Shown here: positions 4,527 through 50,817 of the stretch, piece after piece
Layout of the letters: the number at the start of each line of letters is the position of its first letter
Position numbering within the stretch: position 1 is the stretch's first letter
From: Candidatus Kapaibacterium sp.
GTDB taxonomy: Bacteria; Bacteroidota; Ignavibacteria; Kapaibacteriales; UBA2268
Length of the DNA stretch: 64,000 bases
Assembly: GCA_963665665.1 (NCBI GenBank)
Contig: OY762428.1
Span: 2,848,001-2,912,000 of the forward strand
Direction of reading: 5' to 3'
The notes under the pieces: model-generated
The model's input: the letters and a program-made list of their open reading frames with translations, nothing else
Told to the model about the DNA's origin: nothing
Databases searched by the model: none
Made by a program: the position numbers and the translations under genes

Positions 4527-4560
4527 CAAATATAGTATTGAATCGGACAGCAGTTGACCG
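4527..4560 (-). promoter_or_regulatory. Putative WYL operator (CGGACA-GCAGT-TGACCG) plus -7 element TATATTTG for the AAA/M41 operon
   Basis: Palindrome at 4544-4560; TATATTTG on minus strand at 4534-4527; 9-nt gap. Confidence 0.65.
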
Positions 4561-4585
4561 AAACAAAAGCAGAGGAAAAAAATAT
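4544..4585. repeat. ~42-bp direct repeat, copy 1 (copy 2 at 6131-6173)
   Basis: CGGACAGCAGTTGACCGAAACAAAAGCAGAGGAAAAAAATAT vs CGGTCAGCAGTTGACCGAAACAATAGCAGAGGAAAAAAAATAT. Confidence 0.9.
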
Positions 4586-4782
4586 TTTATAATATTATTA
4601 TGGTTGAAGATGTTTTTGAAGTAGCAGTCAATTATCTGAAATTGAGACTTGAACAATATTTAAAAAAAGAAAATTTTACCCAAACTTTTTCATAATTTTC
4701 TGTTGAGCATCTACGAATTCATAACAGCTTTACCTGTTTTATTACTCCATTTTGTTTCACCAATAATTTAAATAAAAGTTAA

Positions 4783-5838
4783 TTATTGTTCTATTATCTC
4801 TCCCAAAAACAAATCCGATTCAAGAATCCGATCAATCCCTATATCAAATATATAATTGGAATTGGAACCTAATCTGTATTGGCATTCTGTCTGATACTCA
4901 TCCTTCAGATAACCAAAGCCAACATCTTCAAGCAATTTTATTCCTTTTCCATAATTCATCGTTTTTATGTTGTATTCAAGAGCTACCCCCAAAACAAAAC
5001 AATCCAACAAGTTAGTGTAGTTTTTATCGATAAGAAAATGAATTCCGTTCATTATATCTTCGGTATAATGCGCAATTTCTGAGCTATATCGAAGAGCAAA
5101 ATCGGCATTTGATATTTTACTCTCACACTTCTTCAATAAATCAATACACCATTGTCTGTCGGAAAAATAGAAATCAACTAAATTGATAAAATCAAAATAT
5201 TGCCTGGCATTTTTTAGTAAAACTACAGCTTTTTCGAAAAATGGCCGTGCCCATCTATTCTCTTTTATATGCTCAGAAATACTATAAAGCAGCTTTTTGT
5301 AGTCATCGTAATGATAGCACCTGAAAGCAGCAATTTTCTCATAAATCTTCTTACTCCAATCAATATCGTCCAAATAAACAGCCACAGATTCTGCTATCCC
5401 AATACTCTCACCATCCCTATTTATGATGCTTTGGTATATCTGACTTGCCCACTGCTTATCACCCAACATATCTATCACAGATTTTGCAAGCAGGATATTA
5501 CCTGTTTCATTTAATCCTTTTTCATAAGCACACTTAAAATAATCCCTGCACTTTTCTTTGTTTTTTCCTATAAAGAAGCTGATTTCCCCCAATACTCTGT
5601 ATCCATCTCCAGTTTTAATAATTTTCTCAAGCTCTGATATATATTTAACAGTCCATTGTTTTTCTTCGAAATAATCATATACAAAAACAAAACACTGATT
5701 ATATTCCAAAATTGTCTTGCAGGACTCGAAACCCAAATTCATTAAATCAATATCAACGCTGTCGGATAATTTATGTTTTCCTGATTCCAGAAATTTCTTT
5801 TTCAGAAGACAAATATGTTCAATTGGGTCAATAATCAT
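4783..5838 (-). CDS. Helical (TPR-like) repeat protein with DxxW repeats
   Basis: 351-aa ORF; recurring LGDKQWASQIY / LDDIDWSKKIY / IKENRWARPFF / FSDRQWCIDLL. Confidence 0.65.
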   Translation of the reverse strand: MIIDPIEHICLLKKKFLESGKHKLSDSVDIDLMNLGFESCKTILEYNQCFVFVYDYFEEKQWTVKYISELEKIIKTGDGYRVLGEISFFIGKNKEKCRDYFKCAYEKGLNETGNILLAKSVIDMLGDKQWASQIYQSIINRDGESIGIAESVAVYLDDIDWSKKIYEKIAAFRCYHYDDYKKLLYSISEHIKENRWARPFFEKAVVLLKNARQYFDFINLVDFYFSDRQWCIDLLKKCESKISNADFALRYSSEIAHYTEDIMNGIHFLIDKNYTNLLDCFVLGVALEYNIKTMNYGKGIKLLEDVGFGYLKDEYQTECQYRLGSNSNYIFDIGIDRILESDLFLGEIIEQ

Positions 5839-6113
5839 ATCTGTTAAAATGTTGATTTTTAAATTTCTTTGCCATTTTATTTTCTATAAGTCTTAATTTG
5901 TTTCTAAAGTATTGCCCATAATCCTCATTCAAAAACACCTGCTTTACAAAGGCATGTATTTAATGAAGGAGTTCTTTACTGGTTAATGGATAAATTATAC
6001 AACGGGGAATTTATTTTAAGAATATTTAAAAATTCAGTTACATCTAACATAACAAAACTCCTGAATTTTAATTATGAAATCTTCTTTTGTTGAATATTCT
6101 TTTTTTATACAAT

Positions 6114-6147
6114 ACAATATACTATATTAGCGGTCAGCAGTTGACCG
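6114..6147 (-). promoter_or_regulatory. Putative WYL operator (CGGTCA-GCAGT-TGACCG) plus divergent -7-like element TATATTGT
   Basis: Perfect 6-bp inverted repeat at 6131-6147 just upstream of WYL1; TATATTGT on minus strand after a 9-nt gap. Confidence 0.65.
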
Positions 6148-6171
6148 AAACAATAGCAGAGGAAAAAAAAT

Positions 6172-7152
6172 ATGGAAGATCCCAAATATAGTCAGATTCA
6201 TTGCGCTTTATATATCTATGATAAATTGCGGTCGGGCGGCGAGTATTCTACGGTGGATTTTCAGGATATGCTGAGAAATGAGAAGAATCTTATTGTTTCT
6301 GACAGAACGCTGCGCAGGTATATCAACGAAATCAAGCTTTACATTGGTTCCCTGAAAAGAATCGGAAATAAGTACTGGAAGATGGAAAGGCAGTTAAGAA
6401 AGCAGGGCGCTAAGATCAGGCTGAATTCGGAGCAGTTGCTGTCGTTCCATATTTTAAAATCTCACCTCAGGCAGTACAAAAATACCGTGATCGAGGAGGG
6501 AATAATTGAACTGGAAAAACTGCTCGACAGGTTTGCGCCCGGCAATGTTTTCGAATCTGAAGGAATTTTCAGAGATAAGAATATAGGGCAGTATGATTAT
6601 ACCCGTGATGATATTGTTTTGCGCCGCCTGCTGAAATTTATTCCCGAAAAAAGCTGGGTTTTGGTGGAATACAAAATGGCGGGCAGGGATAAAATTTCGA
6701 AATTCAGATGCTACCCGCGTATGATGTTTGAATTCAAAGGTGGCGTTTATGTGGTTGTTTATGTAAGCGGCAAGTCGGCGGGGCACAGGGCGCTTGCTCT
6801 GCATAATATCGAATCGGTTGAAAAAATTGAGAAGCGGAAAGCCGATATTCCTGATTTCAATTTCGGCGAATGGTCGAAGGAAAGATTCGGCGTTTTCTGG
6901 GGCGATACCCGGAAGATTAAACTGCTGATAAAAAAGAAATATAAGCGCTATTTCGAAAACAGAACATGGCACGCTACCCAGCGCCTTACCACCGATGCCG
7001 GGGGGAATATGATCCTGACGATGAATGCCCCGGTTGTTCCCGACCTTGTATCCTGGATTCTTTCCTGGCATGAAGCAATTACTGTGATTGAACCGCAGGA
7101 ACTGAAAGACAATGTGATTGATGCCCTGAAGAAAAGCCTGGAGAATTATTAG
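6172..7152 (+). CDS. HTH-WYL-WCX transcriptional regulator (WYL1)
   Basis: N-terminal wHTH (VSDRTLRRYI), WYL region (YPRMMFEFKGGVYVV), RFGVFWG, WCX (WHATQ...SWILSW...VIEPQEL). Confidence 0.88.
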   Translation: MEDPKYSQIHCALYIYDKLRSGGEYSTVDFQDMLRNEKNLIVSDRTLRRYINEIKLYIGSLKRIGNKYWKMERQLRKQGAKIRLNSEQLLSFHILKSHLRQYKNTVIEEGIIELEKLLDRFAPGNVFESEGIFRDKNIGQYDYTRDDIVLRRLLKFIPEKSWVLVEYKMAGRDKISKFRCYPRMMFEFKGGVYVVVYVSGKSAGHRALALHNIESVEKIEKRKADIPDFNFGEWSKERFGVFWGDTRKIKLLIKKKYKRYFENRTWHATQRLTTDAGGNMILTMNAPVVPDLVSWILSWHEAITVIEPQELKDNVIDALKKSLENY

Positions 7153-7165
7153 ATTGAAAAATATA

Positions 7166-7199
7166 GCGACACCCTGTGATGCAACTATTGTTATATTGG
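7166..7199 (+). promoter_or_regulatory. Putative WYL operator (GCGACA-CCCTG-TGATGC) plus -7-like element TATATTGG
   Basis: Same box, 9-nt gap and TATATT architecture as at 4544, 6131 and 9613. Confidence 0.55.
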
Positions 7200-7250
7200 T
7201 AAGATTGAAAATATATAAATTTTGTTTTTTGAAAACTATTAGAGGTTAGT

Positions 7251-8537
7251 ATGAATAAAAAAATTGAAACAATTTTTAATGATATTTATTTTAAAGAATT
7301 GTTAAGTTATTATGAACAGGTAGATTATCTTTCAATTTTGAGTTGCGGTAGAAGAGAATTATCACACTCTTCATTTATTGCATGGTTAGCTGATCCATCA
7401 GGAAATCATGGATTGAATGACTTTTTTCTTCAGTCAATTTTTGAAATATTTATTGCCCGTTTTTACAGTAAATCAATAGATATATCAGGCAAAAATATCA
7501 ATATATTTACCGAGAAGACGATAAAATCAGGAAGACTTGATATTTATATTGAATCTGCTGATGAAAAGTGGCAAATTGTAATTGAAAATAAAGTGCATTC
7601 AAAAGAAGGAGATCACCAATTAAAAAAATATTTTGAAGAATTGAATAATAAATACGATGATACATTTTTTCTATATTTAAAACCTCATCTCTTGTCAGGC
7701 TCAGAATATCCACTATCTGCTGATTTTAAAGTAATTTATTATCAAGAAATTATTCCTTTATTAAATTCATCATTTGAGCTTGCAGTAAATAAAGGACATA
7801 TTGAAACTGCATTATTAATAAAATCTTATGTTAGAAGTTTATCAATAATATCATTAGATTCAGTAAATTTTGATGCAATGGCTTTAAGTTGTTTTGAACT
7901 TAAACAATTGAAAAGATTATATAGAAATCATAAATTGTTATTCGAGGATATAAAAAGTGAGATTTCTGAGAGCGAGTCAAATGATTACTTAGATTCGATT
8001 GAAAGTATCAAGAATAGTCTGATGTTCATTAACTTATTAAAATTAATGAGCTTTGGAGAAGTATTGAATTTAGATGATCAAGCTAAAGTAATTTTGTTTT
8101 CAAATGATAAAGATAATTCAAAATACGATGTATTGAATGATGCAGGGATAATTGCTAATTGTGTACCTAAAACTAATTTATTCTATATATTAGTTGAAAA
8201 TTATATTAATAATAATATTGGGATTAATCTAAAAAAATTTGAAGAGGATTTCCCTAATTCTTTTGGAATTGAAGATATTGAAATCGAATTATATAAAGTT
8301 TTTAAAAATAGTAAAGAAGCCCAAATTGAGAACAAAAAACATTACCCTAAACGTAAGAATCCTTTTTTTGATTATGAAAATATTTTTGAACTTGAAGACT
8401 GTGTAATTGTTTTGAAAAAAGCTTGGACAGCAAAACAAAAAAACAAATTGAATGGAAAATCATCAATTGAATTACTTTTACAATTTATTAAAAAAAATGA
8501 GTCAAAGTTTAACATAAGAGTTGAACAATGTAAATAA
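7251..8537 (+). CDS. PD-(D/E)XK nuclease family protein
   Basis: RELSHSSFIAWLADP..NHGL, GRLDIYI, IVIENKV, QLKKY; very AT-rich. Confidence 0.8.
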   Translation: MNKKIETIFNDIYFKELLSYYEQVDYLSILSCGRRELSHSSFIAWLADPSGNHGLNDFFLQSIFEIFIARFYSKSIDISGKNINIFTEKTIKSGRLDIYIESADEKWQIVIENKVHSKEGDHQLKKYFEELNNKYDDTFFLYLKPHLLSGSEYPLSADFKVIYYQEIIPLLNSSFELAVNKGHIETALLIKSYVRSLSIISLDSVNFDAMALSCFELKQLKRLYRNHKLLFEDIKSEISESESNDYLDSIESIKNSLMFINLLKLMSFGEVLNLDDQAKVILFSNDKDNSKYDVLNDAGIIANCVPKTNLFYILVENYINNNIGINLKKFEEDFPNSFGIEDIEIELYKVFKNSKEAQIENKKHYPKRKNPFFDYENIFELEDCVIVLKKAWTAKQKNKLNGKSSIELLLQFIKKNESKFNIRVEQCK

Positions 8538-8549
8538 CATATTAATTTC

Positions 8550-8612
8550 TTTTCCCCTCCTTTTTGAAGGAGGGGAAAACAGGGGAGGTTGTTTCAATTA
8601 TTTCTCCCCCCC
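8550..8612. repeat. REP-like palindrome / bidirectional terminator between convergent genes
   Basis: TTTTCCCCTCCTT-TTTG-AAGGAGGGGAAAA followed by AGGGGAGG; a similar element lies at 42838-42924. Confidence 0.55.
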
Positions 8613-9593
8613 TCACCCCTCCAGATTCTTCAGCGCTTCTTTATGCATGCTTATCAGTTCATCCCGCAATTTTTCGGGTTTAACGGAGCTAATGCAGGAA
8701 CTCCAGCTTATCAGCCATGATTTCAGTTCCGGGCTTAGCGGAACCAGCATTTCCAGAGACAGGCTGCCGTCCTCGTTATCTTTGAATTTCTGTGTCTGAT
8801 GCCAGAACCTGTTCTCGAAATATTTCCTGCTGTCGGCATTTATTATAATTTCCACTTTTTCGGGTTCGCCCCAGAAAACGCCGAACCTGATTGCCGAGAA
8901 TTTTTCCTGGTTGAAATCCGGAACTTCCACATCTTCATGCACTGCTTCCTGAATGTCCGTTATTCTGTGAATTGCCATAGCTATATAATACTGATATTCC
9001 GGGATATAAACCGCCGCGTAAAGATACCCCGCGTTCGAGAACATCCTTGCTATCCTGCCGATATAACTTTTCTGATACCCACTGCCCGATACATCGTAAT
9101 CAATTGTTACCCATTGCTTTTGCGTGATCGCTTCTATCACTTTCTTAATAATCCTGTCATGCCCGGAGTAATCATAGCTGCCGATATTTTTATCCCAGAA
9201 GAATGGCTCCCCGTCGAACACGTCGCCAACGGCGTGGCTGTCTATCTTATTAAGCAGAGCATTTATCTCTTCCTCGAAGTATGTACCCTTAAAATTTTTC
9301 AGGTTGGCCTTCAGCATATAAAGCGAAAGCAGGTCGTTTTCACGGAAAATTATACCCGAACGTAAATTTTCATCAATATGCCAGATGGTTGTTCTTCCTT
9401 CTTCGGTAAATGTTATTTCCGGGGCAATCGCCAGGAGTGTTTGCATGTCCCGCTGTATTGTTCTCGGGGAATAATCTCCTCCATGATCATTAAGCAAACG
9501 CTCTCGTATTTCACTTGTTTTCAGTTTTTTACCGCTAAGCAGCATTCTGTAAATTGCGAAAATTCTTTCTACCTGGGAATTGATTTCATTCAT
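8613..9593 (-). CDS. HTH-WYL-WCX transcriptional regulator (WYL2)
   Basis: SPRTIQRDM HTH; DKNIGSYDY; RFGVFWG; YFENRFWHQTQ; SWLISW; clear paralog of WYL1. Confidence 0.88.
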   Translation of the reverse strand: MNEINSQVERIFAIYRMLLSGKKLKTSEIRERLLNDHGGDYSPRTIQRDMQTLLAIAPEITFTEEGRTTIWHIDENLRSGIIFRENDLLSLYMLKANLKNFKGTYFEEEINALLNKIDSHAVGDVFDGEPFFWDKNIGSYDYSGHDRIIKKVIEAITQKQWVTIDYDVSGSGYQKSYIGRIARMFSNAGYLYAAVYIPEYQYYIAMAIHRITDIQEAVHEDVEVPDFNQEKFSAIRFGVFWGEPEKVEIIINADSRKYFENRFWHQTQKFKDNEDGSLSLEMLVPLSPELKSWLISWSSCISSVKPEKLRDELISMHKEALKNLEG

Positions 9594-9612
9594 TTTTCTA
9601 TTCCATTACAAA

Positions 9613-9646
9613 ACGACATTATATGACGCATGGACGCTTATATTTG
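9613..9646 (+). promoter_or_regulatory. Putative WYL operator (ACGACA-TTATA-TGACGC) plus -7 element TATATTTG
   Basis: Box at 9613-9629, 9-nt gap, TATATTTG at 9639-9646; lies between WYL2 and the divergent gene. Confidence 0.65.
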
Positions 9647-9684
9647 CAAATATTGTGTTTGATAAGCAAGAAAGTACAGAATAC

Positions 9685-10662
9685 ATGACAAAGTTCCTGG
9701 AAAAAATGCTTGACGATAAGCGGGACAGATTTTATACAATCAATGGAATATTTTTTCATAATATCAGGTTCAGGATCCAATGTGCGCGCAAAGTTGAATC
9801 TGCTGACGATATTAACAGGCTGACCGTAGTAGTGGAGGAAATTGCCCGCAATCTGAATGATATTTCCTGGATAAAAAGAATTCTGCTGAATTATTCACCC
9901 AATGCCAGGGCGGAAGAACTTGACAAACTTGCCTCTCTTGCTTTCAAAATAACCGGAGACAGAAATTTTGTTGTTGCTTTGCTGAGCAGGGCTGCAAAAG
10001 ATATTTCCAGAGTCTCCGGGTTTATCAGGAATGCTATGCTTATAGATATTTACCTGAGCAGCAGCAGAAAGCTTACCGGATATTTGAAAAAAAACGACAG
10101 CCCTGATGTTCCGGCGCGGGACTGGCTGAAATTTGCTTCCTTCATTGAAATATTTCACGACATGAACCTTGAGCCGCAGTATAACAATATAATCGGCCTT
10201 TGTTTCGATAATGCTCGTAAATCGATTGTTGATGATAATAATTTCGATGATCTATGTTTCTTCCTTGAGTCTGCCATAGCCTGCAAGGCGCCATGCAGGG
10301 ATATTATTATCAGCAGATACGTGGACTATATAATTTCAATAACCAACAGCGCTGTCAGGAATAACGATGACAGGCTGCGGCTTCTCAGGATTTTTTCGGA
10401 TATTTTCGATAAAAAGTTTTCAGCCAGCGACAGTGAAGTTTTCCATTACATGGCTAAATATTTATCTACACCAAAGGGCAAATGGGCAAAGCAATACTAC
10501 TTTTATATGTACGATATCCGCTGGTGCGAAGTACTTTTCCGCCGCGCGTTCGGCAGGAAGAATTTCGGCCCTGAGGACGATGGAAATTACAGGATACTTG
10601 CCATGCTCATCCGCGAAATTTTCGGCCCGGAGCAGCCCTGCATTATCGAATATATCCAATAA
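9685..10662 (+). CDS. Helical repeat protein with DxxW repeats (start moved to ATG 9685)
   Basis: LNDISWIKRIL, ITGDRNFVVALL, MYDIRWCEVLF; the longer ORF call overlaps the promoter region. Confidence 0.6.
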   Translation: MTKFLEKMLDDKRDRFYTINGIFFHNIRFRIQCARKVESADDINRLTVVVEEIARNLNDISWIKRILLNYSPNARAEELDKLASLAFKITGDRNFVVALLSRAAKDISRVSGFIRNAMLIDIYLSSSRKLTGYLKKNDSPDVPARDWLKFASFIEIFHDMNLEPQYNNIIGLCFDNARKSIVDDNNFDDLCFFLESAIACKAPCRDIIISRYVDYIISITNSAVRNNDDRLRLLRIFSDIFDKKFSASDSEVFHYMAKYLSTPKGKWAKQYYFYMYDIRWCEVLFRRAFGRKNFGPEDDGNYRILAMLIREIFGPEQPCIIEYIQ

Positions 10663-10814
10663 TTGAATGTTTACGATAAAAAAATCACAAGTGCTTTAAT
10701 TTTGAATTAAGAAACGTTAATGTATAGGAATTAATAAATATATTTTGTAATATTAGGAGGGAATTAAATTCAAAGGAAAAAGAAATATATTATAAATTTG
10801 AAAGGAAATTTATT

Positions 10815-12977
10815 GTGAATTACAGTATTATTCAAGAATTAGTATCTGATTTTCAGAAAAAGTATAAGAAAGAGCCAAACGCTTTATTTAAAGATGACGA
10901 CATATTTTTAGAACAACTCAATGAAATTTTTGAAGAAATACTTGATGAACCATTTGAGAGTATTGAAGATGCTGAAGATTTGTTTTTAATTACAAAAAAT
11001 TATTTTGGAAAAGGAAAAATTAGGGTTATTGTCATTCATACAGATTATTTATTAATCAGATCATTTAAAGAAAAATTTTTAGGTGGTTGGAAGATGCTTG
11101 ATGAAGAAGAATTTGAACCACTTCAAATTGACTGGTTGGATATTAAAGGTATCAAGTATCGTAAGAAGTTAAATGAATTTTGTATCAAATTTAAAAATGA
11201 GAATAATACTTTATGTTTCAATTTAGAATTAATTCTCAATGATAATTTTGATTTAAATTTTACATCGGACCTCTTTTTCTTAATTAAAGATATTGCTAAC
11301 AGAGTAAATGAAAATGATGAGACTTTCGATCAATTAATTGAAAAATACAAGAAAAAAATATCAGAAGAAAAGTATGATGTGGCTTTAAAAATTGTAAATA
11401 ATTTGATTGAAATGAAGCCTGATGATCCACTATTTTACCAATGGAAAGGAGATTGTTTATTAAAAATAACAAAGCTATCAGAATCAATTGATATGTCATT
11501 ACTGGCTTTAAAACTTTTACAAGAAATTAATGGTACTGAATTATCTGATTATAACGAAGATTATCTAAATATATATAATAATTCTAATTATAATATCGGA
11601 CTGGCCTATGATCAACTAGGAGATAAATATAATGGTCTTTGGTATATGAATAAATCGTATCATGCTTGTTTGGACAATAATACCAAAATTTTATGGAAAA
11701 AAGATTTGGATAAAGTATATTCCGATTTTATCCAAAAACTACCGGAAATTGATTATTCAGAAAGAAAATTGATTTTTATCGAAAATGGACTACCTGAATT
11801 TAAGGTCGATACTATACTGCCTTTAGATATATCTAATATGGGATCAATAAAATTTCCTCCATCACATCCCAAAAAAGGTGAACTATATATCGGGCATCCT
11901 TTTAAAAATGATACATATTATCCTGTTGAAGATTATGAAAATCAGTTATTTCAAAGTCAGGTAATGGAACTGAATCATTTGCTTCAATGTCTTGGTGCAA
12001 CAGCTATAAAATCTGAAAATGCAAAAATTGTTACTGACAATGGGGCTGTGTCAATGAGCAGCAATAGTAAATCGAATGGGGAATCAGAACATAGTATGGA
12101 TGGTAAGGCAAAAATTCATGATGTTGACGCATCTACTCAGAATAAATCGAATGTTGAAATCCAAGATGATAAAAAATATTGTAGTTCTTCTGATCAACAA
12201 AAATCTATGACAACAGAGCAGCATTTTAATCCAAAGATTAAGCCATATATACCAGATGATTTAGTTTGGTATCACCACAACGATACATGGCAAAGTTTGG
12301 CAAAACAGAGACTACAGGGAGGCTTATTGATGCATGAAATGACAATTTCCACAAAGAACCTCAGCATAATTAATGAAAATGAAAGAAATAAAATCAATGA
12401 AGATTTCAAAAAGTTAGTAAGTGCAGGGTATTCAAATTTGTTGGTTTCAGGGAAACTTTCGGCTAGTACAAACACACAAACTGAAAGGACAAGTGATGTT
12501 TCATATGCAATTTCTAAAAGTGAACATTTTGAACAAAAAATACAAATTGAATTTGCTCCAATTGATGATTTAACTGAAGAACCGTCAATTTATAAAAAAA
12601 ATGAAATTCAACATGAAAATATACTACAACAAGATTTAACCGAGAATGAAAAAGAATATCAGGAATTAATTGAAGATGCTATCGAAGATGGAGAAATTGA
12701 TGACTCTACAAGAAAATTCTTAGATAAAAGATTAAAACGATTAAATATTACACCGGAAAGAGCAACAGAGATAGAAAATTTAATTTTAAATGCTAATAAT
12801 TATACAGAGGATGAACTTGATTATATCGATATGCTTGAAGATGCGATAGATGATGGAATTATCGATGAAGCAGAAAGAAAATTCTTAGATAAAAGAATGC
12901 AAAGATTAAATATTACTAAAGATAGAGCTTCGGAGATAGAAAGAAAGTTTATACAAAATTTGAACAAAAATTCTTAG
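10815..12977 (+). CDS. TPR-containing protein with S/T-rich central domain and two C-terminal TerB-like helical repeats
   Basis: TPR (YDVALKIVNNLIEMKPDDPLFYQWKG); tandem EDAIEDGEIDDSTRKFLDKR / EDAIDDGIIDEAERKFLDKR. Confidence 0.65.
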   Translation: MNYSIIQELVSDFQKKYKKEPNALFKDDDIFLEQLNEIFEEILDEPFESIEDAEDLFLITKNYFGKGKIRVIVIHTDYLLIRSFKEKFLGGWKMLDEEEFEPLQIDWLDIKGIKYRKKLNEFCIKFKNENNTLCFNLELILNDNFDLNFTSDLFFLIKDIANRVNENDETFDQLIEKYKKKISEEKYDVALKIVNNLIEMKPDDPLFYQWKGDCLLKITKLSESIDMSLLALKLLQEINGTELSDYNEDYLNIYNNSNYNIGLAYDQLGDKYNGLWYMNKSYHACLDNNTKILWKKDLDKVYSDFIQKLPEIDYSERKLIFIENGLPEFKVDTILPLDISNMGSIKFPPSHPKKGELYIGHPFKNDTYYPVEDYENQLFQSQVMELNHLLQCLGATAIKSENAKIVTDNGAVSMSSNSKSNGESEHSMDGKAKIHDVDASTQNKSNVEIQDDKKYCSSSDQQKSMTTEQHFNPKIKPYIPDDLVWYHHNDTWQSLAKQRLQGGLLMHEMTISTKNLSIINENERNKINEDFKKLVSAGYSNLLVSGKLSASTNTQTERTSDVSYAISKSEHFEQKIQIEFAPIDDLTEEPSIYKKNEIQHENILQQDLTENEKEYQELIEDAIEDGEIDDSTRKFLDKRLKRLNITPERATEIENLILNANNYTEDELDYIDMLEDAIDDGIIDEAERKFLDKRMQRLNITKDRASEIERKFIQNLNKNS

Positions 12978-13071
12978 TAAGTATGATTTTTGTTCGCAAA
13001 TTGATTTTTAATTAAGTACTATCCAAAAATTTATACTATCGATTTTAATCGATAGAAAAATTTGTTAAAAA

Positions 13072-13094
13072 CTACCCCGCTTGCAGCGGGGTAG
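13072..13094. terminator. GC-rich hairpin, probable terminator
   Basis: CTACCCCGC-TTGCA-GCGGGGTAG flanked by A and T runs. Confidence 0.55.
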
Positions 13095-13140
13095 CCTTAA
13101 ATTTTTCACCCCACCCCACCACAAAAAGGATCTCAAAACC

Positions 13141-17141: not shown

Positions 17142-17152
17142 AGGGTATTAAT

Positions 17153-18826
17153 ATGAGCAAAATAATCGGGAAAGTGGCGGCGACAGAAAAAGCTCCAACA
17201 ACAATTGATTTTTTTTATTTTTGGACTGATAAAAATAGAATATTGAATCCTTTTGATGTTGTAAAAGTTAAACATATTAATAATTCGACAACTTTTGGAG
17301 TTATTGAAGAAATATCTCATATTACTGACTCTGCTAGCTATTTAAGTTGTTATATATCAAATGATTTTGGTAATGTTGATTTGCAACCAAATTCAAATCG
17401 TATAGGACTAAATTATGTTAAAGCAAAGGTTGTTGGAAATAATGATAATATTTATACACCAGTGTTAAATGGGAGTGATGTAAGTATCGCAGATTCAAAT
17501 GAAATTTTGCAAGCTTTAGGGTTAGATAAAATTAAGAATCCGATGCCTTGTGGATATATTGAAATGTATAGGGGAGAGGATAAAAAAATATTACCTGTAA
17601 ATTTCAACGCACAATTTTTAATTGGGCCTGAAGGTGCACATTTGAATATTTCGGGGATATCAGGTCTTGCAGCAAAAACTTCATATTCTATGTTTTTACT
17701 AAAGGCTATTCAAGAAAAATATGGAAATCAATCTGATGATGATGATATTGATTCCGTTGCATTTGTTGTATTTAATGTAAAGGGAAGGGATCTTTTAGCG
17801 ATTGACGAACCCAATACTAATTTAAGTGAAAAGGATAAAGCAATTTATAAAGATATGATGCAACTTAAAACTAACCCATTTGAAAATGTTACATACTTTT
17901 ACCCATATGCAGAACATTCTACTTCAAAAACATTAAGTTATGGAGAAAAAAATGATATTGAAGCACAAATTGACAACAACAAAGCTTTTAAGTATAAATA
18001 TATATACGAAGAAGATAAGGAAAATTTAGAACTACTTTTTGCAAATGTTGAAGATTCCTCAGGGACAATGGGAGATATTATTAATTTTATTGTTAATGGG
18101 AATGGGAAATTTGGTGATGTTGATAGTTGGAATACATTAATGCAGACTGTTTCTGATTATAAACAATCAGGAAGAAAAGATGGAGATAAAGATATTTCAG
18201 TTCTTAGTTGGAGAAAATTCAGTAGAATAATTAGCAAGTCTTTATCACATTCGATATTTCAAAAAAGTATTGTTTCTGGAAAAAATGAACAAAGACTAAA
18301 AGATGCTGTTTCAAATATTAAGAAAAATGAAGTTCAAGTCATTGATATTGCAAAATTAGATGAGGATACTCAAGCTTTTGTTTTTGGTGATGTTGTAAGA
18401 TCTATTTATGACTTAAAGTTAGGGCAAGACAACAGAGATGAAAATGATATACCTTCGAGAATTATTATTTTTATAGATGAATTGAATAAATATGCATCGA
18501 AAGATGTTCCAAAAAATTCACCTATTTTGAGACAAATTTTGGATATTGCAGAAAGAGGCCGTTCTTTAGGGATTATCTTGTTTTCAGTTGAGCAATTTAA
18601 AAGTGCTATTCACGATAGAGTTAAAGGTAACTGTGCTACTAATGCTTTTGGTAGAACAAATGCAATTGAAATTTCAAAAAGTGATTATCATTTTGTTCCT
18701 CAGGTTTATAAAAATATGATGACAAGATTATCTCCCGGTGAATATATTTTAGAGCATCCGGTATTTCGCTCATTATTGAATATAAAATTTCCACTTCCTT
18801 TATATAAACAATTTCCAAATGGTTAA
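17153..18826 (+). CDS. HerA/FtsK-family ATPase (bacterial HerA clade)
   Basis: N-terminal HAS-barrel-like region; HLNISGISGLAAKTSY (variant Walker A), FNVKGRDL, IFIDELNKY, ERGRSLGIILFSVEQ. Confidence 0.85.
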   Translation: MSKIIGKVAATEKAPTTIDFFYFWTDKNRILNPFDVVKVKHINNSTTFGVIEEISHITDSASYLSCYISNDFGNVDLQPNSNRIGLNYVKAKVVGNNDNIYTPVLNGSDVSIADSNEILQALGLDKIKNPMPCGYIEMYRGEDKKILPVNFNAQFLIGPEGAHLNISGISGLAAKTSYSMFLLKAIQEKYGNQSDDDDIDSVAFVVFNVKGRDLLAIDEPNTNLSEKDKAIYKDMMQLKTNPFENVTYFYPYAEHSTSKTLSYGEKNDIEAQIDNNKAFKYKYIYEEDKENLELLFANVEDSSGTMGDIINFIVNGNGKFGDVDSWNTLMQTVSDYKQSGRKDGDKDISVLSWRKFSRIISKSLSHSIFQKSIVSGKNEQRLKDAVSNIKKNEVQVIDIAKLDEDTQAFVFGDVVRSIYDLKLGQDNRDENDIPSRIIIFIDELNKYASKDVPKNSPILRQILDIAERGRSLGIILFSVEQFKSAIHDRVKGNCATNAFGRTNAIEISKSDYHFVPQVYKNMMTRLSPGEYILEHPVFRSLLNIKFPLPLYKQFPNG

Positions 18827-18832
18827 TAGAAT

Positions 18833-20392
18833 ATGATTGAAGAAACAAACAAAACTAGAATTGGTAAAGATGTAATTGAGTCTTTAACATTAGCTATGTA
18901 TGATGATCCGATGTTCATTTACAGAGAGTATATTCAAAATGCCGCTGATCAAATAGATATAGCTTTGGAAGAAGGGATGATTTCATCAAAGGAAGAATGC
19001 AGGATTGAAATAAAAATTGATAAACCTGGTAAAATAATTACAATTTCTGACAATGCTACAGGTGTTCAAAAAGAAAATGTGTTATCAGTATTAAAAAGTA
19101 TCGCACAAGGTGTTAAAGATAGAACAAAGCATAAAGGGTTCAGAGGAATTGGTCGTCTTGGGGGATTGGCATACTGTGATAAATTGATTTTTGAGACAAG
19201 TTTTAAAGGTGAAAATGTTAAATCTATTCTTATATGGAATGCAAAAGAATTAAAGCAAATAATTAATGATAGGACTAAAATTGAGGATGCGACAGAAGTT
19301 ATTGATTTAATTACTGATCATGATTTTAAAGAAGAAAATGAGGATAAAAGATATTTTAAGGTAATATTAAAAAACGTAACAAACGATATACTTTTAAATC
19401 ACGAAGAAGTATACAATTACTTATCAATGGTTGCGCCTGTTCCTTATAATAAGGGATTTTTCTTTCAGGAAAAAATTTATGCCAGAGCTAAAGAATATCA
19501 TTTTCCTATAGATGAATATAATTTGTATATCAATAATAATCAAGTATTTAAAGAATATACGACTACGATTTATGAAGGAGAAAAGCATAATAAAAAGAGA
19601 AGTGATGATGAAATTTTTGACATAGATTTTTTTGATATAAAAAATAAATTCGAAGAAATTTTGTGTTGGGGATGGTATAGTGTTTCCACTTTAAAAAAGC
19701 AGATGCCTCCAGTTAATATTGCTAGAGGAATTCGATTAAGAAAAGGTAATATCCAAATAGGTAATGAGAAACAACTAGTAAAACTATTTAAAGAACCTAG
19801 GGGTTCATTCTATTTTTTTGGAGAAGTTCATGCTACTAGTTCTGATTTAATTCCTAATGCAAGAAGAGATTATTTTACTGAAAATAAAATTTTTAAAATT
19901 TTTGAAAAAGGACTCGAATCAAAATTTAGGGAATTACATGAATTATATCATTTCTCGTCAAGTACAAGAAGTGAGAAGAAAAAAATTGATAACCTAATTA
20001 CCTTTACAGAAGAATTTAACAAAAAAGTAGAAAAGGGGTTTACAAGGCCACAGGAGAAGGAAGAATATGAAGATAAATTAAAAAAATACAAAGAGGATGC
20101 AGAAAAAGCAAGTATCAAAATTGAAAAAATCAAGAATAATGTCGCTAGTGATAAAACTAAAAAAAAGATTGTTGAAAAAATTGCAGCTGATATTAAAGTT
20201 CGTACACCAGAAACAAACAAGATAACAAATAAAAAACCAAAATTATTAACAGATAATCTCCAAAAACTCAATAGGCACGATAGAAAATTAGTTGGTAAAA
20301 TATTGTCAATTATCGATAATATTTTAAAAAAGGATTTGTCTGATAATGTTAAACAAAAAATTATTGAAGAACTTAATAAATCGAAAAATTGA
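18833..20392 (+). CDS. GHKL (Hsp90/MORC-like) ATPase with coiled-coil tail
   Basis: YREYIQNAAD (N-box), ISDNATG (G1), GFRGIGRLGG (G2), IPNARRDYF (S5-like). Confidence 0.85.
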   Translation: MIEETNKTRIGKDVIESLTLAMYDDPMFIYREYIQNAADQIDIALEEGMISSKEECRIEIKIDKPGKIITISDNATGVQKENVLSVLKSIAQGVKDRTKHKGFRGIGRLGGLAYCDKLIFETSFKGENVKSILIWNAKELKQIINDRTKIEDATEVIDLITDHDFKEENEDKRYFKVILKNVTNDILLNHEEVYNYLSMVAPVPYNKGFFFQEKIYARAKEYHFPIDEYNLYINNNQVFKEYTTTIYEGEKHNKKRSDDEIFDIDFFDIKNKFEEILCWGWYSVSTLKKQMPPVNIARGIRLRKGNIQIGNEKQLVKLFKEPRGSFYFFGEVHATSSDLIPNARRDYFTENKIFKIFEKGLESKFRELHELYHFSSSTRSEKKKIDNLITFTEEFNKKVEKGFTRPQEKEEYEDKLKKYKEDAEKASIKIEKIKNNVASDKTKKKIVEKIAADIKVRTPETNKITNKKPKLLTDNLQKLNRHDRKLVGKILSIIDNILKKDLSDNVKQKIIEELNKSKN

Positions 20393-22299
20393 TGAAAAAT
20401 GTTGGCAAAAGACGAGTTATATTAATTGAACCAAATTATAAGAACAAATATCCTCCAATTGGATTAATGAAACTTGCGACATATCACCGAAAAATTGGAT
20501 ATGAAGTAGTCTTCTATAAAGGAGATTTAAAGAATTATATTCACCTTGATATTTATACAGACTTACTTTTCAAACTCAAAAAAATTGACAATGGGGTTTT
20601 ATGGCAAGAATATAAATCATTATTAATCAATTATATTAAAACTGGTAAAAACGAATATTTTGAAGAATTGGTAATACTTTCAAAATATGGTATTCTTGTA
20701 AAGGAGTGTTTAAAATATTATAGAAACTACTATTACTCAAAAGAATATTTAAATTTCCCAAAATGGGATAGAGTTTGTGTTACTACACTGTTTACATTTA
20801 ATTGGAATATTACGATTGAGACAATTAATTTTGCTAAAACAATTGTCAAGGATATCAAACAAATTTTTGTCGGTGGTGTATTAGCTACTGTTTTAGCAGA
20901 AGAGCTTGAGAAAGAAACAGGTATTAAGCCTCACAAAGGTCTTTTAAATAAACCTAAGATTATTGATAAAGATAATGAAATTATTATTGACGAACTACCT
21001 CTTGATTATTCGATTCTAGATGAGATTGATTATAAATATCCTGAAAATGATGCTTATTATAGTTATGTAACTAGAGGATGTATAAGAAAATGTAAGTTTT
21101 GTGCTGTATGGAAGATCGAACCAAAATTCGAACAATATATCTCAATTAAAAATAACATCGATAAAGCAAAATTAATATATGGAGAAAAAAGGAACTTACT
21201 TTTATTAGACAATAACGTACTTGCTTCAAATCAATTTCCAAAAATTATCAAAGAAATTAAAGCATGTGGTTTTTTTAAGGGTGCAAAATATATTGAACCA
21301 AATTATTTAGATATTGCAGTGGAAAATCTCAAAAATTGTATAAATGATAAAGCATATATAAATAAAAGTTTTGAATTGTATCACTATCTATTAAATAAAT
21401 TAAAGGGAGATAAACAACAAGAACTTTATAACCTTCTCAATGAATATAATTTATTAAACATTGATACGGCAACAAAAGAAAATATATTATTAGTTTATTT
21501 AGAAGTAAAGGACTTATTTGAGAAACATAGAAATAAAACAAAGAAATTGAGGTACGTTGATTTTAATCAAGGTGTTGACGCCAGATTAATTAATGAGGAT
21601 AATATGCGGCTATTAAGTGAAATCCCAATTAAACCGTTAAGGATTGCATTTGATAATATTGCATACAAAGATATATATATTAAGGCTATTCAATTGGCAA
21701 AAAAGTATGGAATAAATGATCTCTCCAACTATTTATTATATAATGAAAATGATAAGCCATCGGAATTATATGAGAGGTTAGAAATAAATGTTCTTCTATC
21801 TGAGGAGTTAAACATTAGTATATATTCATTTCCTATGAAATATCATCCGATATCTGGAGAAAAATTTTTAACTCGTGATTATCTCGGATTACATTGGAAT
21901 AGAAAATATATTAGAGCCATTCAAACGATTTTAAATTCAACTAAAGGAAAAATTGGAAAAGGTGTAAGCTTCTTTTATGAAGCTTTTGGCAATAATCTAA
22001 ATGAATATCATAAAATTTTAATAATGCCGGAAACCTATATATTATATCGTTTTTTCTTTAGAGATATCGGATTTACTTCTAAATGGTGGCAAGACTATAA
22101 TAATTTATCTATTAATCAAAAAAATAATGCGTTGGATATAATAAAAACTAACGAGTTTAATAATATTGAGAAATATACAAATAGTTATGTTATTAAATCA
22201 TTTATCAAAGAACATTATTTAATTAGTCGAAATGATATTGTAAATCCAAAATCAAAAATTTATAAATTAAAGGAAAAATACAATAGAAATAAAAAATAA
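20392..22299 (+). CDS. Radical SAM enzyme with N-terminal B12-binding-like domain
   Basis: YPPIGLMKLATYH, FVGGVLAT, TRGCIRKCKFCAV (CxxxCxxC), LLDNN, VDFNQGVDARL, LRIAFD; TGATG coupling with the upstream gene. Confidence 0.85.
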   Translation: MKNVGKRRVILIEPNYKNKYPPIGLMKLATYHRKIGYEVVFYKGDLKNYIHLDIYTDLLFKLKKIDNGVLWQEYKSLLINYIKTGKNEYFEELVILSKYGILVKECLKYYRNYYYSKEYLNFPKWDRVCVTTLFTFNWNITIETINFAKTIVKDIKQIFVGGVLATVLAEELEKETGIKPHKGLLNKPKIIDKDNEIIIDELPLDYSILDEIDYKYPENDAYYSYVTRGCIRKCKFCAVWKIEPKFEQYISIKNNIDKAKLIYGEKRNLLLLDNNVLASNQFPKIIKEIKACGFFKGAKYIEPNYLDIAVENLKNCINDKAYINKSFELYHYLLNKLKGDKQQELYNLLNEYNLLNIDTATKENILLVYLEVKDLFEKHRNKTKKLRYVDFNQGVDARLINEDNMRLLSEIPIKPLRIAFDNIAYKDIYIKAIQLAKKYGINDLSNYLLYNENDKPSELYERLEINVLLSEELNISIYSFPMKYHPISGEKFLTRDYLGLHWNRKYIRAIQTILNSTKGKIGKGVSFFYEAFGNNLNEYHKILIMPETYILYRFFFRDIGFTSKWWQDYNNLSINQKNNALDIIKTNEFNNIEKYTNSYVIKSFIKEHYLISRNDIVNPKSKIYKLKEKYNRNKK

Positions 22300-22379
22300 A
22301 AAATATTTTTATTCCTAAAATATCAATAATTTTTTTGGTTTAGATTATGCAACAAATATATACAATTAATAAGCCTCTA

Positions 22380-22626: not shown

Positions 22627-23007
22627 GCTTCCCGAGCGTTCCCCCGAGCTTCCCGAGCATTACCCCGTGCCTGCCGAGCGTTCCCTCATGCTTTCCGAGC
22701 ATTCCCTCGTACTTCCCGAGCGTTCCCTCGTGCTTTCCGAGCTTTCTCCAGAGCTTCCCGAGCGTTCCCCCGAGCTTTCCGAGCATTCCCCCGTGCTTTC
22801 CGAGCATTCCCCCGAGCCTGCCGAGCATTCCCCCGAGCTTCCCGAGCGTTCCCCCGAGCTTCCCGAGCGTTCCCCCGAGCTTCCCGAGCGTTCCCCCGAG
22901 CTTCCCGAGCGTTCCCCCGAGCTTTCCGAGCGTTCCCCCGAGCTTTCCGAGCCTTCCCTCGTGCTTCCCGAGCCTTCCCCCAAGCTTTCCGAGCTTTCTC
23001 CAGAGCC
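22627..23007. repeat. Tandem array A: ~18 degenerate copies of 21-bp GCTTCCCGAGCGTTCCCCCGA
   Basis: Read directly; 7-aa periodicity in every ORF frame. Confidence 0.95.
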
Positions 23008-23023
23008 TGATTATCGCTGATAT

Positions 23024-23258
23024 ATGTCATCTTAGCGTTGGGATGTGCCGTCTTAACGTTGGTTCGTGTCATCTTAGCCTTGGTTTGTGTTATCTTAGCC
23101 TTGGTATGTGTCATCTTAGCCTTGGTTCGTGTCGTCTTAGCCTTGGTATGTGTCGTCTTAGTCTTGGTATGTTACGTCTTAGCCTTGGTATGTGTCGTCT
23201 TAGCCTTGGTTCGTGTCGTCTTAGCCTTGGTTTGTGTCATTTTAGCGTTGGTTTGTGC
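23024..23258. repeat. Tandem array B: ~11 degenerate copies of 21-bp TGTCGTCTTAGCCTTGGTATG
   Basis: Read directly; sequence unrelated to array A but same 21-bp period. Confidence 0.95.
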
Positions 23259-23626
23259 TTCCAAAAACATTTTTTCAGGTAAAATTTTACTCAGAAAAGA
23301 CAGAAATTTACTTTTTTGATATAGATTTTCGTTCTATTGGTCCGTTCGATCCATTTTATCAATTGCTGCTTCTATCCGAAAGTGCCGGTAATCGCTTTTG
23401 CCGGGTGAATATTTGGTTTTTAAATATTGGGGTTTGCTATGCCCGGCATGGTTGAGAATCCAAAGGCACATAATTTCCATCGGACGGGGGCGGAAGTGCC
23501 CCGGGCGCTTTGCCGTGACAGTATTATTGTTTCGGATTATCATATTTTTGCTTGCTCCATTATATTTCTGCCATTAATAAAAGTATTCTATTCTATCCTG
23601 ATCGATAGCATGGGAAAGAGTTAAGT

Positions 23627-24637
23627 TCAATCCCTTGGTTCAGGTGTTGGAATATTATACTCCTTCATCCCTTCCTTTAGATTCTTCTTTATCCTGTCGG
23701 CCAGTTCGAGTGGTTCCAGGACTTTTATTACGCCGGTCCAGCTCATTATCCATGATTCGAAGTCCTTTACGAGGGGGACGGTCATTTCCAGTATCATGTT
23801 GCCGTTTTTATCTTTGCTGATCTTCTGTGAGTTGTGCCAGAAACGCTTTTCGAAATACTGTGTGAATTCCTTTTTTATAAGCAGTTTTACGTTTGCCGGT
23901 TTGCCGTGATAAACGCCGAATCTTTCTTTGCTCCACTCGTTGAAGTCGAAAGGAAGGATTTTATCGCTTACTTTTTCGCAGGGGGATATTTGGCTTATGT
24001 TTTGTATCAGCAGAACCCTGTGCTCGTCCACTTTGCCGCAGGTGAACACGACAGCGTAGAGGTTGCCTTTGTTCTCGAACATTGTTCTTGGCAGGCATTT
24101 GAACCTGCTTTTCTTTTTTCCGTCTGATGACAGGTATTCAACTTCCACCCATTGCTTTTCGGCGATATGCCTTATCAGGGGCCTGATTACCAGGTCTTCC
24201 TGTGTGTAGTCGTAGTAGCCGATGTTTTTATTCCATAGCATGCTGTCCATGCGGAATACCTCGCCGGGGAAAAGTTTGTCCAGCTTTTTGTCCAGCTCTT
24301 CAATGCCTTCGGCAATCACCGTTTTTTTGAAATGCTTGATATAGGCTTTCAGCATGTAGTATGAAAGCATTTCGTTCTGCTGGATTCTCACCGTTTTCGT
24401 CGTATTTCCGGTGATCCCCATATATTCCCAGATTCTTTCCTTATGGCTGTAGTCGCGAAAATCCACCAGATTATGCTCAAACATCAGGGCAAGGTCTCTT
24501 TGTATTGATTTTTTCTCTGCTGACAGGCCTTCGCCGTTCAGGTAATTTATTATATCGCTTACCGTTCCGATATGTTCCTTATTGAAAAATTTCAACAGCC
24601 ATAATATTCTGTCGGCTTTTCCCGGTTTCTTTAGCAT
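23627..24637 (-). CDS. HTH-WYL-WCX transcriptional regulator (WYL3; start moved to ATG 24637)
   Basis: KSIQRDL HTH; NKNIGYYDY; EWSKERFGVYHG; RFWHNSQ; SWIMSW; GGAG RBS before MLKKPG. Confidence 0.88.
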   Translation of the reverse strand: MLKKPGKADRILWLLKFFNKEHIGTVSDIINYLNGEGLSAEKKSIQRDLALMFEHNLVDFRDYSHKERIWEYMGITGNTTKTVRIQQNEMLSYYMLKAYIKHFKKTVIAEGIEELDKKLDKLFPGEVFRMDSMLWNKNIGYYDYTQEDLVIRPLIRHIAEKQWVEVEYLSSDGKKKSRFKCLPRTMFENKGNLYAVVFTCGKVDEHRVLLIQNISQISPCEKVSDKILPFDFNEWSKERFGVYHGKPANVKLLIKKEFTQYFEKRFWHNSQKISKDKNGNMILEMTVPLVKDFESWIMSWTGVIKVLEPLELADRIKKNLKEGMKEYNIPTPEPRD

Positions 24638-24688
24638 TGCTGACTCCAAATAAAAAAAATATAATATTTCAACGGCTGCAAATGTCAT

Positions 24689-24721
24689 TCGACAAATAAT
24701 GTCCCTCAAAATTTACATTCG
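24689..24721 (+). promoter_or_regulatory. Putative WYL operator (TCGACA-AATAA-TGTCCC) plus -7-like element TACATTCG
   Basis: GACA-N5-TGTC palindrome between WYL3 and the divergent lipoprotein gene; 8-nt gap. Confidence 0.55.

Positions 24722-50744: not shown

Positions 50745-50817
<73 letters not shown>

Follow-up and report, generated by a model that had tools for sequence, protein, structure and literature searches.

The 64-kb stretch of contig OY762428.1 analysed here (the window, by which we mean this whole stretch of DNA) carries in its left part three genes for WYL proteins, each with a putative helix-turn-helix of the winged type (wHTH), a WYL and a WCX domain, together with five copies of a 17-nucleotide (nt) box, each followed at a nearly constant distance by a promoter-like element. 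We refer to a box with its element as a unit (A to E), and to the gene that it points at as its cargo (A to E). An earlier note, made from the sequence alone, had proposed these five boxes, and all five 17-mers were found where it had placed them; four are followed by the element after 9 nt and the fifth after 8 nt, each facing a gene, with units A and B read on the minus strand. The WYL genes, the boxes and the elements around them are as follows, with positions counted in the window.

4527–4534, minus strand: −10/−7-like element of unit A, TATATTTG, 9 nt from box A and 52 nt before the ATG at 4474
4544–4560, minus strand: box A, CGGACAGCAGTTGACCG (CGGTCAACTGCTGTCCG when read towards the cargo), GG-type, DriD/DdaA-like
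4561–4586, plus strand: GAAACAAAAGCAGAGG-A7-TAT, a relic duplicate of the WYL-1 leader that no WYL gene follows
6114–6121, minus strand: −10/−7-like element of unit B, TATATTGT, 9 nt from box B
6123–6130, plus strand: candidate promoter element of WYL-1, TATATTAG, abutting box B; a start site would fall inside the box
6131–6147, no strand assigned: box B, CGGTCAGCAGTTGACCG, a perfect palindrome (CGGTCA-GCAGT-TGACCG)
6172–7152, plus strand: WYL-1, 326 amino acids (aa), wHTH-WYL-WCX, with the diverged recognition helix RTLRRY
7166–7182, plus strand: box C, GCGACACCCTGTGATGC (GCGACA-CCCTG-TGATGC), 14 nt after the WYL-1 stop, with the weakest right half-site
7192–7199, plus strand: −10/−7-like element of unit C, TATATTGG, 9 nt from box C and 51 nt before the ATG at 7251
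8613–9593, minus strand: WYL-2, 326 aa, wHTH-WYL-WCX, recognition helix RTIQRD
9613–9629, plus strand: box D, ACGACATTATATGACGC (ACGACA-TTATA-TGACGC), a perfect match to CGWCA-N5-TGWCG
9639–9646, plus strand: −10/−7-like element of unit D, TATATTTG, 9 nt from box D and 38 nt before the ATG at 9685
23627–24637, minus strand: WYL-3, 336 aa, wHTH-WYL-WCX, recognition helix KKSIQRD
24689–24705, plus strand: box E, TCGACAAATAATGTCCC (TCGACA-AATAA-TGTCCC)
24710–24715, minus strand: candidate promoter element of WYL-3, TAAATT(TTG), ending 4 nt short of box E on the strand of WYL-3
24714–24721, plus strand: −10/−7-like element of unit E, TACATTCG, 8 nt from box E and 60 nt before the ATG at 24782

The end of box B lies 24 nt upstream of the start codon of WYL-1, that of box D 19 nt upstream of the WYL-2 start and that of box E 51 nt upstream of the WYL-3 start; the earlier note had described three boxes just upstream of a divergent WYL gene. 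All three paralogs thus have a box in their own promoter region. For WYL-3 the ATG at 24637 replaces the TTG at 24709 as start codon, and the start of cargo D was corrected to the ATG at 9685. Every element faces a gene: those of units A, C, D and E lie 38–60 nt 5′ of a start codon, and that of unit B lies 63 nt before a small open reading frame (ORF) of 24 aa and 275 nt before the 351-aa gene of cargo B, an arrangement of a small ORF followed by a leader of ~275 nt. The boxes resemble the motif CGWCA-N5-TGWCG published for DdaA of Acinetobacter, which activates DNA-damage, CRISPR-Cas and restriction–modification genes (PMC12392091; PMC13010146). Only box D fits this motif exactly, with boxes A to C and E differing from it at one or two positions; G2, C4 and G12 are kept in all five boxes and C14 in four of them (box C reads TGATGC).

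Counted from the TA of the element, the box spans the 10–26 nt upstream and so occupies the place of a −33/−35 element; it had previously been set between the −7 and −33 positions, which has to be amended, as it covers −33. The promoter-proximal GWC triplet lies 11 nt 5′ of the TAnnTT(TG) element (10 nt in unit E), and no TTTG or TTGACA-like element can be read in the −33/−35 region of the unit sequences. At 9639–9654 in unit D, the plus-strand TATATTTG has right behind it a near mirror image of itself, AATATTTG when read on the minus strand; judged by sequence, these would be two overlapping promoter elements that face away from each other, one for cargo D and the other possibly for WYL-2, and polymerase could sit on only one of them at once. 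A second box beside box E (24672–24688) was considered and rejected, as it falls below the top 30 in a position-weight-matrix scan and is superfluous given the TAAATT abutting box E.

To interrogate how far such an arrangement could be due to chance, we compared three forms of the pattern with shuffled sequence. For the bare core (GWCA-N5-TGWY) there are 16 matches in the window where 10.3 ± 3.5 would be expected, and as many were attained in 8 of 100 shuffles, so that the core by itself is not enriched. The composite pattern, which was defined after seeing the data as the core followed after 10–11 nt by TAYATT, has five matches on both strands of the 64 kb, which are exactly the five units; the mean in 300 dinucleotide shuffles was 0.023 and none of them reached five. 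A looser form (8–13 nt, TANNTT) again returned only these five, against a mean of 0.57, with a single one of the 300 shuffles reaching that number. The position-weight-matrix scan, whose matrix includes the window's own five sites and is circular for those, detected no further units in intergenic DNA. The one other strong match, a box-like 17-mer of 15.4 bits (ATGCCAATATATGTCCC) at 30939–30955, belongs to the coding sequence of the Leu/Phe-tRNA-protein transferase and lacks a TAnnTT at a distance of 9 nt; it is probably a chance occurrence. A scan of 4400–10000 for sigma-70 promoters and terminators gave 25 promoter-like sites where 22.1 were expected and is uninformative.

The same combination of box and element recurs beside related regulators in other genomes. 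Our comparison set consists of nine loci (L001–L009) with WYL homologues of 31–38% identity, drawn from one genome contig scan and none of them part of the source genome; they belong to metagenome-assembled genomes labelled as Ignavibacteria, Bacteroidetes or Kapaibacterium, or carrying no label or a doubtful one. In four of the nine (L001, L003, L004 and L005) a box of the form GCG[T/A]CA-N5-TG[G/T]CAT ends 21–34 nt before the WYL start, and L002 has a half box only upstream of its WYL gene. Over 540 nt this makes four matches, where the rate in the rest of the loci would predict 0.11 (P = 6e-6). Additional boxes lie in L003 at 2612 and in L005 at 982 and 5009.

The spacing was examined on a set of 12 chosen boxes, the five of the window and seven from the loci, where TAnnTT stands at offset 9 in 10 of the 24 oriented flanks and at offset 8 in two more; the background is 17 of 840 position-flanks (2.0%), giving P = 1.7e-11 for these 12 boxes. 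This set omitted 10 of the 17 pattern matches in the loci, most of them in coding DNA, and L003-5102 is intergenic and has no such element; when all 17 matches are taken without selection, TAnnTT is found at offset 9 in 6 of 34 flanks (P = 1.5e-5). No sequence is shared among the spacers of C, D, E, L005-982 and L005-5009, although their length is maintained (9 nt; 8 nt in E). On the strand of the WYL gene, a TAnnTT ends 0–5 nt before the box in six of eight cases; transcription of the regulator would then begin within the box, a layout suggestive of autorepression. The L005 contig carries three boxes altogether, of which that at 982–998 is flanked on either side, at 9 nt, by a TAnnTT that faces one of two divergent genes, and a gene for a Cas4/DUF2779 nuclease precedes its WYL gene in one operon.

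A segment of ~60 nt is present twice, as units A and B; it runs from the TATATT element through the box into the WYL-1 leader and ends at the position of the WYL-1 ATG. No WYL ORF is present in 4587–4780, behind the leader copy next to box A, and unit A looks like the relic of a WYL-1-type control region. Since they are duplicated, the two units are not independent and form one class by descent. Cargo B (4783–5838) appears to be inserted between WYL-1 and the gene of cargo A, an AAA+/M41 protein, along with the duplication of the control region (4561–4780 and 5839–6113). A corresponding situation is found in L003, where the slot between the WYL and the AAA+/M41 gene is taken by a 351-aa gene unrelated to cargo B and a separate box cassette precedes each of the two genes, as in the window; L003-2612 and L003-3931 share ~45 nt comprising element, spacer and box, and are thus a duplicated cassette as well. 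L004 is orthologous to L003.

The three proteins, put forward previously as paralogous WYL regulators, are confirmed as such: the WCX domain (Pfam PF25583) scores above its cut-off (23.9) in all of them, with 42.8, 34.3 and 41.4 bits, PADLOC WYL models match all of them with E values from 1e-16 to 3e-20, and their pairwise identity is 30–33%. The Pfam WYL domain (PF13280) exceeds its cut-off in WYL-3 only (22.2 vs 21.8 bits). No Pfam match at E ≤ 0.001 was obtained for the helix-turn-helix of the three paralogs; the motif S-x-R-T-I-Q-R-D is present, and the family member P0009 is annotated with PF08279. A tree built from 31 family members joins WYL-1 and WYL-3 as sisters (support 98/96) and places WYL-2 in another subclade, indicating the three WYL genes to be old paralogs. 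The subfamily comprises ~500 cluster representatives at E ≤ 1e-30, and a tblastn search with WYL-2 against plasmids and phages returned no match.

A profile of the 31 family members searched against PDB has one strong match only, the chains of DriD from Caulobacter (E 3e-16, 62.7 bits), which is collinear over residues 191–320; BrxR follows with E values of 0.006–0.046, PafBC with 0.015 and CapW with 0.5–0.8, and a profile of three sequences agrees with this. Y166 and Y192 are invariant in all 31 sequences, and Y192 aligns with the Tyr192 by which DriD contacts single-stranded DNA (ssDNA). The RWHVR motif reported for the CapW/BrxR repressors (PMC11662680) is absent, the window proteins carrying YLYAAV, GVYVVV and NLYAVV at that strand. 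Compared with BrxR, alignment offsets place ~25 more residues before the WYL domain; together with the collinearity with DriD, these are the only indications of a three-helix bundle.

The recognition helix reads R-[TS]-[IV]-Q-R-D in nearly all family members, R-T-L-R-R-Y in WYL-1 and K-S-I-Q-R-D in WYL-3. Its two-arginine motif, R-x-x-x-R in WYL-1 and WYL-2 and K-x-x-x-R in WYL-3, was equated by motif with R37/R41 of DriD, R47/R51 of DdaA and R46/R50 of PafB. DriD binds ATACGAC-N7-GTCGTAT, its Arg37 and Arg41 reading G2 and the G opposite C4, and its Glu40 touching C1 (PMC10853764; PMC9186387). At the position equated by motif with Glu40, WYL-1 alone among the three paralogs has an arginine where the family mostly has glutamine; with the motif found in 121 of 150 representatives, the residues there are Q in 72, Y in 18, R in 10 and E in 6. 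G at base 1 (CGGWCA) and a GC-rich centre are confined to boxes A and B; in C, D and E, one half or both have C as base 1. Two classes of boxes, GG-type (A, B) and CG-type (C, D, E), are clear from these sequences, and the diverged recognition helix of WYL-1 would match its own GG-type boxes. Of the three classes by outer bases distinguished previously, the separation of 4544/6131 stands, being GG-type and one duplicated cassette, and the split of C and D from E is unconvincing.

The cargo genes form part of a defence-type gene island that takes up the left 28 kb of the window (GC 37%). PADLOC matches among the neighbours of the WYL genes comprise PDC-S26, PDC-S29, a GajB-like UvrD and HerA-like models, and the WYL genes are thus located together with phage-defence genes. 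The genes concerned are listed below.

201–2266, minus strand: two genes 3′ of cargo A, for a 255-aa protein without a family name and a 432-aa metallo-beta-lactamase/beta-CASP nuclease-like protein
2345–4474, minus strand: cargo A, a 709-aa AAA+/ClpB-D2-small/M41 peptidase protein (Pfam)
4783–5838, minus strand: cargo B, a 351-aa protein between WYL-1 and the AAA+/M41 gene, no family match
5976–6050: small ORF of 24 aa facing unit B, preceded by AGGAG
7251–8537, plus strand: cargo C, a PD-(D/E)XK nuclease (PDDEXK_4; PADLOC candidate system PDC-S26), identified by Pfam and PADLOC
9685–22299, plus strand: cargo D and a co-directional run of a 325-aa and a 720-aa unnamed protein, a UvrD helicase with PD-(D/E)XK nuclease, a 378-aa unnamed protein, a HerA-like protein, an HATPase_c_3 protein and a radical SAM/B12-binding protein
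24782–27954, plus strand: cargo E, a 321-aa protein with a hydrophobic N-terminus and a weak DUF6591 match, followed by a 356-aa unnamed protein and an EcsC/TerB protein (PADLOC PDC-S29)

Cargo A is 35% identical over ~670 aa to proteins of L004 (E 7e-137) and L003 (E 2e-132). In L004 the gene divergent from the WYL gene encodes this full-length, 35%-identical AAA+/M41 homologue, and in L003 the same homologue lies one gene further. All three AAA+/M41 proteins are soluble, 673–709 aa long and encoded on the minus strand (2345–4474 in the window, 531–2552 in L003, 1867–3888 in L004); the PADLOC match of cargo A is weak, to the N-terminus of DolB (E 8e-6). By its sequence we regard the AAA+/M41 protein as a candidate inducible defence or stress protease. 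The 255-aa and 432-aa genes are probably in one operon with it, and no conservation of these two genes was seen in L004. Within the run of cargo D (9685–22299) the matrix scan found no further box, and its part from 13081 to 22299 on the plus strand, with the UvrD/PD-(D/E)XK (GajB-like) protein, the 378-aa protein, the HerA-like ATPase, the HATPase_c_3 (MORC/Hsp90-like) protein and the radical SAM/B12 protein, looks like a multigene defence system without a PADLOC model name. Relaxed Pfam searches with the unnamed cargo proteins returned nothing credible.

At 1–49 on the plus strand, where the window begins, Rfam identifies the 3′ part of a tRNA gene (35.9 bits), next to the island; no repeat of this fragment of ≥13 nt was found elsewhere in the window, and hence no island boundary. 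Outside the WYL units, a protein with Schlafen/AlbA_2, HATPase_c_4 and wHTH domains, a common companion of defence loci, is encoded at 32375–33724 (plus strand), and a single ORF of 2841 aa at 34005–42530 (minus strand) combines several glycosyltransferase (GT2, GT4, GT9) and methyltransferase domains. Further to the right, 50745–59246 holds a tRNA-Phe and then, on the other strand, a 1722-aa protein with a phage tail tape-measure domain, which is followed by a McrBC-type pair (McrBC component at 56239–57531, AAA_5 ATPase at 57528–59246); this may be a second mobile or defence patch.

Taken as a reading of these sequences, the boxes are very probably operators of the WYL proteins tied to promoters. 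This had been proposed in the earlier note, and it has since gained the recurrence in other genomes, the 9-nt gap and the DriD/DdaA motif; units A and B no longer count separately. A WYL homodimer would bind the box by the two arginines of its recognition helices; with a ligand in the WYL domain (ssDNA by analogy), the dimer would help RNA polymerase to start at the cargo promoter, in the manner of DriD and PafBC. At boxes B, D and E the same dimer would cover the start site or the leader of its own divergent gene and thereby repress it. WYL-1 would read A and B, and WYL-2 and WYL-3 would read C, D and E, possibly with cross-talk between them. That the WYL proteins act by activation rather than repression is, by analogy, close to an even call with a slight lean towards activation; of the two options named previously, a repressor site or PafBC-like activation, the latter has gained from the kinship with DriD and from the fixed-distance design of DriD and PafBC. 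To the explanation as a whole, DriD/DdaA-type operators in promoter cassettes with ligand-triggered activation of the cargo and autorepression, we give an even chance.

A number of observations weigh against this explanation. L006–L009, four of the nine loci, have no box despite having the same recognition helix, and a search for inverted repeats upstream of the WYL genes in these loci and in L002 gave nothing convincing. The spacing signal is partly inherited, given the duplications of A/B and L003-2612/L003-3931 and the orthology of L004, and on the minus strands of L005-3931 and L005-5009 there are elements at offset 8 or 9 that face no gene. The helix was aligned to Arg37/Glu40/Arg41 of DriD by the R-T-x-x-R motif rather than by superposing structures; a PDB search with the N-terminal 75 aa of WYL-2 gave no match, and the likeness to DriD is mostly in the WCX half. 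At the position of DriD Arg204, only 3 of the 31 sequences have arginine, and Leu or Phe takes the position of Trp206; these contacts to ssDNA are not kept. DdaA binds ~50 bp upstream of start sites (PMC12392091), and the motif alone does not fix a mechanism.

The promoter elements themselves add to these points. TAnnTTTG occurs at 1.43 per kb in the intergenic DNA of the window, within the 0.65–1.82 of permuted controls, and is not enriched; its designation as the Bacteroidota −7 element, carried over from the earlier note, therefore goes by analogy, and TATATT is equally a generic TAnnnT −10-like hexamer. Upstream of the 38 genes of the window there are seven TAnnTTTG sites, too few for a baseline of the −33 position, and as a −33 motif was not found globally in Flavobacterium johnsoniae (PMC7366714), its absence here is weak evidence. 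Sequences like AGGAG or GGAG stand 5′ of several gene starts (e.g., 4474, 7251 and 24637); with Ignavibacteria and Kapaibacterium among the nearest relatives, such leaders mean that the host may not be one of the classical Bacteroidia, which also bears on the label of a −7 element.

The alternative that survives best takes the WYL paralogs as BrxR/CapW-like repressors, whose unliganded dimer would block the upstream part of the cargo promoter together with their own start, and from which a ligand produced by infection or DNA damage would free both. We consider it a real possibility that stays clearly short of an even chance. It suits the defence-island setting, where BrxR and CapW are WYL repressors released by ssDNA (PMC11662680, among other sources), and a single operator between two overlapping divergent promoters, with the WYL start region covered in six of eight cases, fits a simple repressor just as well; in this bacterial group, the lack of a −33 element hardly counts against it. 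The sequences of the proteins are, on the other hand, far closer to DriD (E 3e-16) than to BrxR (0.006–0.046) or CapW (0.5–0.8) and lack RWHVR; the box is the motif of the activators DriD and DdaA and not the BrxR inverted repeat of 11 bp with a 5-bp spacer; and a steric repressor needs no exact gap of 9 nt, which is kept here despite unrelated spacers.

It is improbable that the boxes are WYL operators whose constant gap merely reflects the inheritance of a copied promoter–operator cassette. Copying did take place, as seen from the ~60-nt duplication of A/B, the ~45 nt shared by L003-2612 and L003-3931 and the orthology of L003 and L004, but it does not readily account for the unrelated spacers of C, D, E, L005-982 and L005-5009, in which a length of 9 nt (8 nt in E) is kept, and between WYL proteins that are only 30–38% identical neutral insertions and deletions would be expected in unconstrained AT-rich DNA. 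That the composite motif arose by chance or from the composition of AT-rich intergenic DNA, or that it is bound by a factor other than WYL, is very unlikely: the bare core and TAnnTTTG are not enriched, the pattern is post hoc and a high-scoring box lies in a housekeeping gene at 30939, but the composite occurs five times against 0.023 expected (0 of 300 shuffles), recurs beside WYL homologues elsewhere, matches an experimentally defined WYL operator, and the recognition helix and the box covary.

A more general scheme can be put forward only tentatively, and we think it rather unlikely to hold in full: defence islands of the Fibrobacteres–Chlorobi–Bacteroidetes (FCB) group could be wired by portable cassettes of box, 9 nt and −10/−7-like element, copied before newly gained defence genes and read by several orthogonal DriD-like activators, whose specificity would be reset by one residue of the helix (Gln to Arg along with C to G at base 1). 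The dimer would switch polymerase from the regulator promoter to the cargo promoter, and would thus give induced modules with low leakage and separate triggers.

Publications already exist on WYL regulators of defence islands, on the operator CGWCA-N5-TGWCG, on WYL proteins that activate defence genes and on fixed-distance promoters that have no −35 element. In the open-access literature we found no paper on this WYL family in Bacteroidota or Ignavibacteriota, or on a WYL operator combined with a TAnnTTTG-type element in these phyla. The useful additions of the present locus are three paralogs side by side, a readable change of specificity, and the duplication of a cassette before a cargo gene that was swapped in. 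If the preferred explanation, activation from DriD/DdaA-type operators, is true, the DriD/DdaA operator code and the fixed-distance design that replaces a −35 element would reach beyond the Proteobacteria and Actinobacteria to the Bacteroidota/Ignavibacteriota, and the same code would extend from global DNA-damage regulons to the local control of defence genes. With three paralogs and five sites in 20 kb, and one clear change of protein–DNA specificity, the locus would then be a natural test bed, which could show how WYL proteins diverge without cross-talk and whether those of defence islands can activate. The AAA+/M41 protease gene, which travels with WYL in three genomes, would be a candidate inducible defence effector, and box and spacing would make a simple annotation rule for WYL-controlled island genes.

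Among the known systems, DriD of Caulobacter crescentus, a homodimeric activator triggered by ssDNA and composed of a wHTH, a three-helix bundle, a WYL and a WCX part, is the closest solved relative, and at 327 aa it has nearly the length of the window proteins (326–336 aa). The operator of DriD has an AT-rich centre, and CGxC-N7-GxCG is found in the own promoter of 68 of 69 DriD homologues (PMC10853764). In five promoters that have no −35 element, its sites overlap with the place of −35 and are all equally far from the −10 element, and a site between driD and a divergent operon activates that operon (PMC13004042). The units of the window share with DriD the CGxC-N7-GxCG operator with an AT-rich centre, the box at the own promoter, the box towards a divergent operon and the overlap with −35 at a constant distance from −10. 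They differ from it in that three local paralogs lie in the defence island of an FCB-group bacterium, whereas DriD is a single global regulator of DNA damage in an alphaproteobacterium; moreover, the centres of boxes A and B are GC-rich and the equivalents of Arg204 and Trp206 are not kept.

PafBC of mycobacteria, which works by sigma adaptation, likewise combines an element containing GTC with a TAnnnT that follows it at a fixed distance, and has no −35 element; its consensus is tGTCgg-N10-tAnnnT, in which two arginines read the GTC (PMC8635444). The gap from GWC or GTC to the TA is 11 nt here against 12 nt in PafBC and 12 nt in DriD, the latter counted from published oligonucleotides on the assumption of a 17-bp spacer to an engineered −35. 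Unlike the WYL proteins of the window, PafBC is a heterodimer of adjacent paralogs, it reads a nonpalindromic half-site at −26 and binds DNA only together with RNA polymerase; the boxes of the window have dyad symmetry, and cargo genes separate the three WYL genes.

DdaA of Acinetobacter and other Moraxellaceae has the identical published motif, with box D as a perfect match, and its published account likewise has it activating defence and repair genes. It is, by contrast, one global regulator with its motif ~50 bp upstream (~160 bp for aciT) and not abutting −10, and it is likened here by motif and not by sequence. SiwR of Mycobacterium smegmatis is a homodimeric WYL activator divergent from its target operon, with an imperfect palindrome of 19 bp between the −35 and −10 elements of that operon (PMC10693628); it belongs to another phylum, has DinB-like cargo, and is likened by description only.

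BrxR and CapW, of bacteriophage exclusion (BREX), cyclic-oligonucleotide-based antiphage signalling (CBASS) and other islands, share the wHTH-WYL-WCX architecture, the location in defence islands, the frequently divergent position to their targets and the autoregulation. They are set apart by a similarity that is marginal (E 0.006–0.8) and by the RWHVR motif missing here; the operator of BrxR, an inverted repeat of 11 bp with a 5-bp spacer, lies downstream of −10, and the published site of CapW does not fit GxC-N7-GxC.

By analogy only, the units also resemble those of the restriction–modification controller (C) proteins, small dimers that, from a fixed operator overlapping −35, activate defence genes and autoregulate, although C proteins have an unrelated fold and no ligand-sensing domain.

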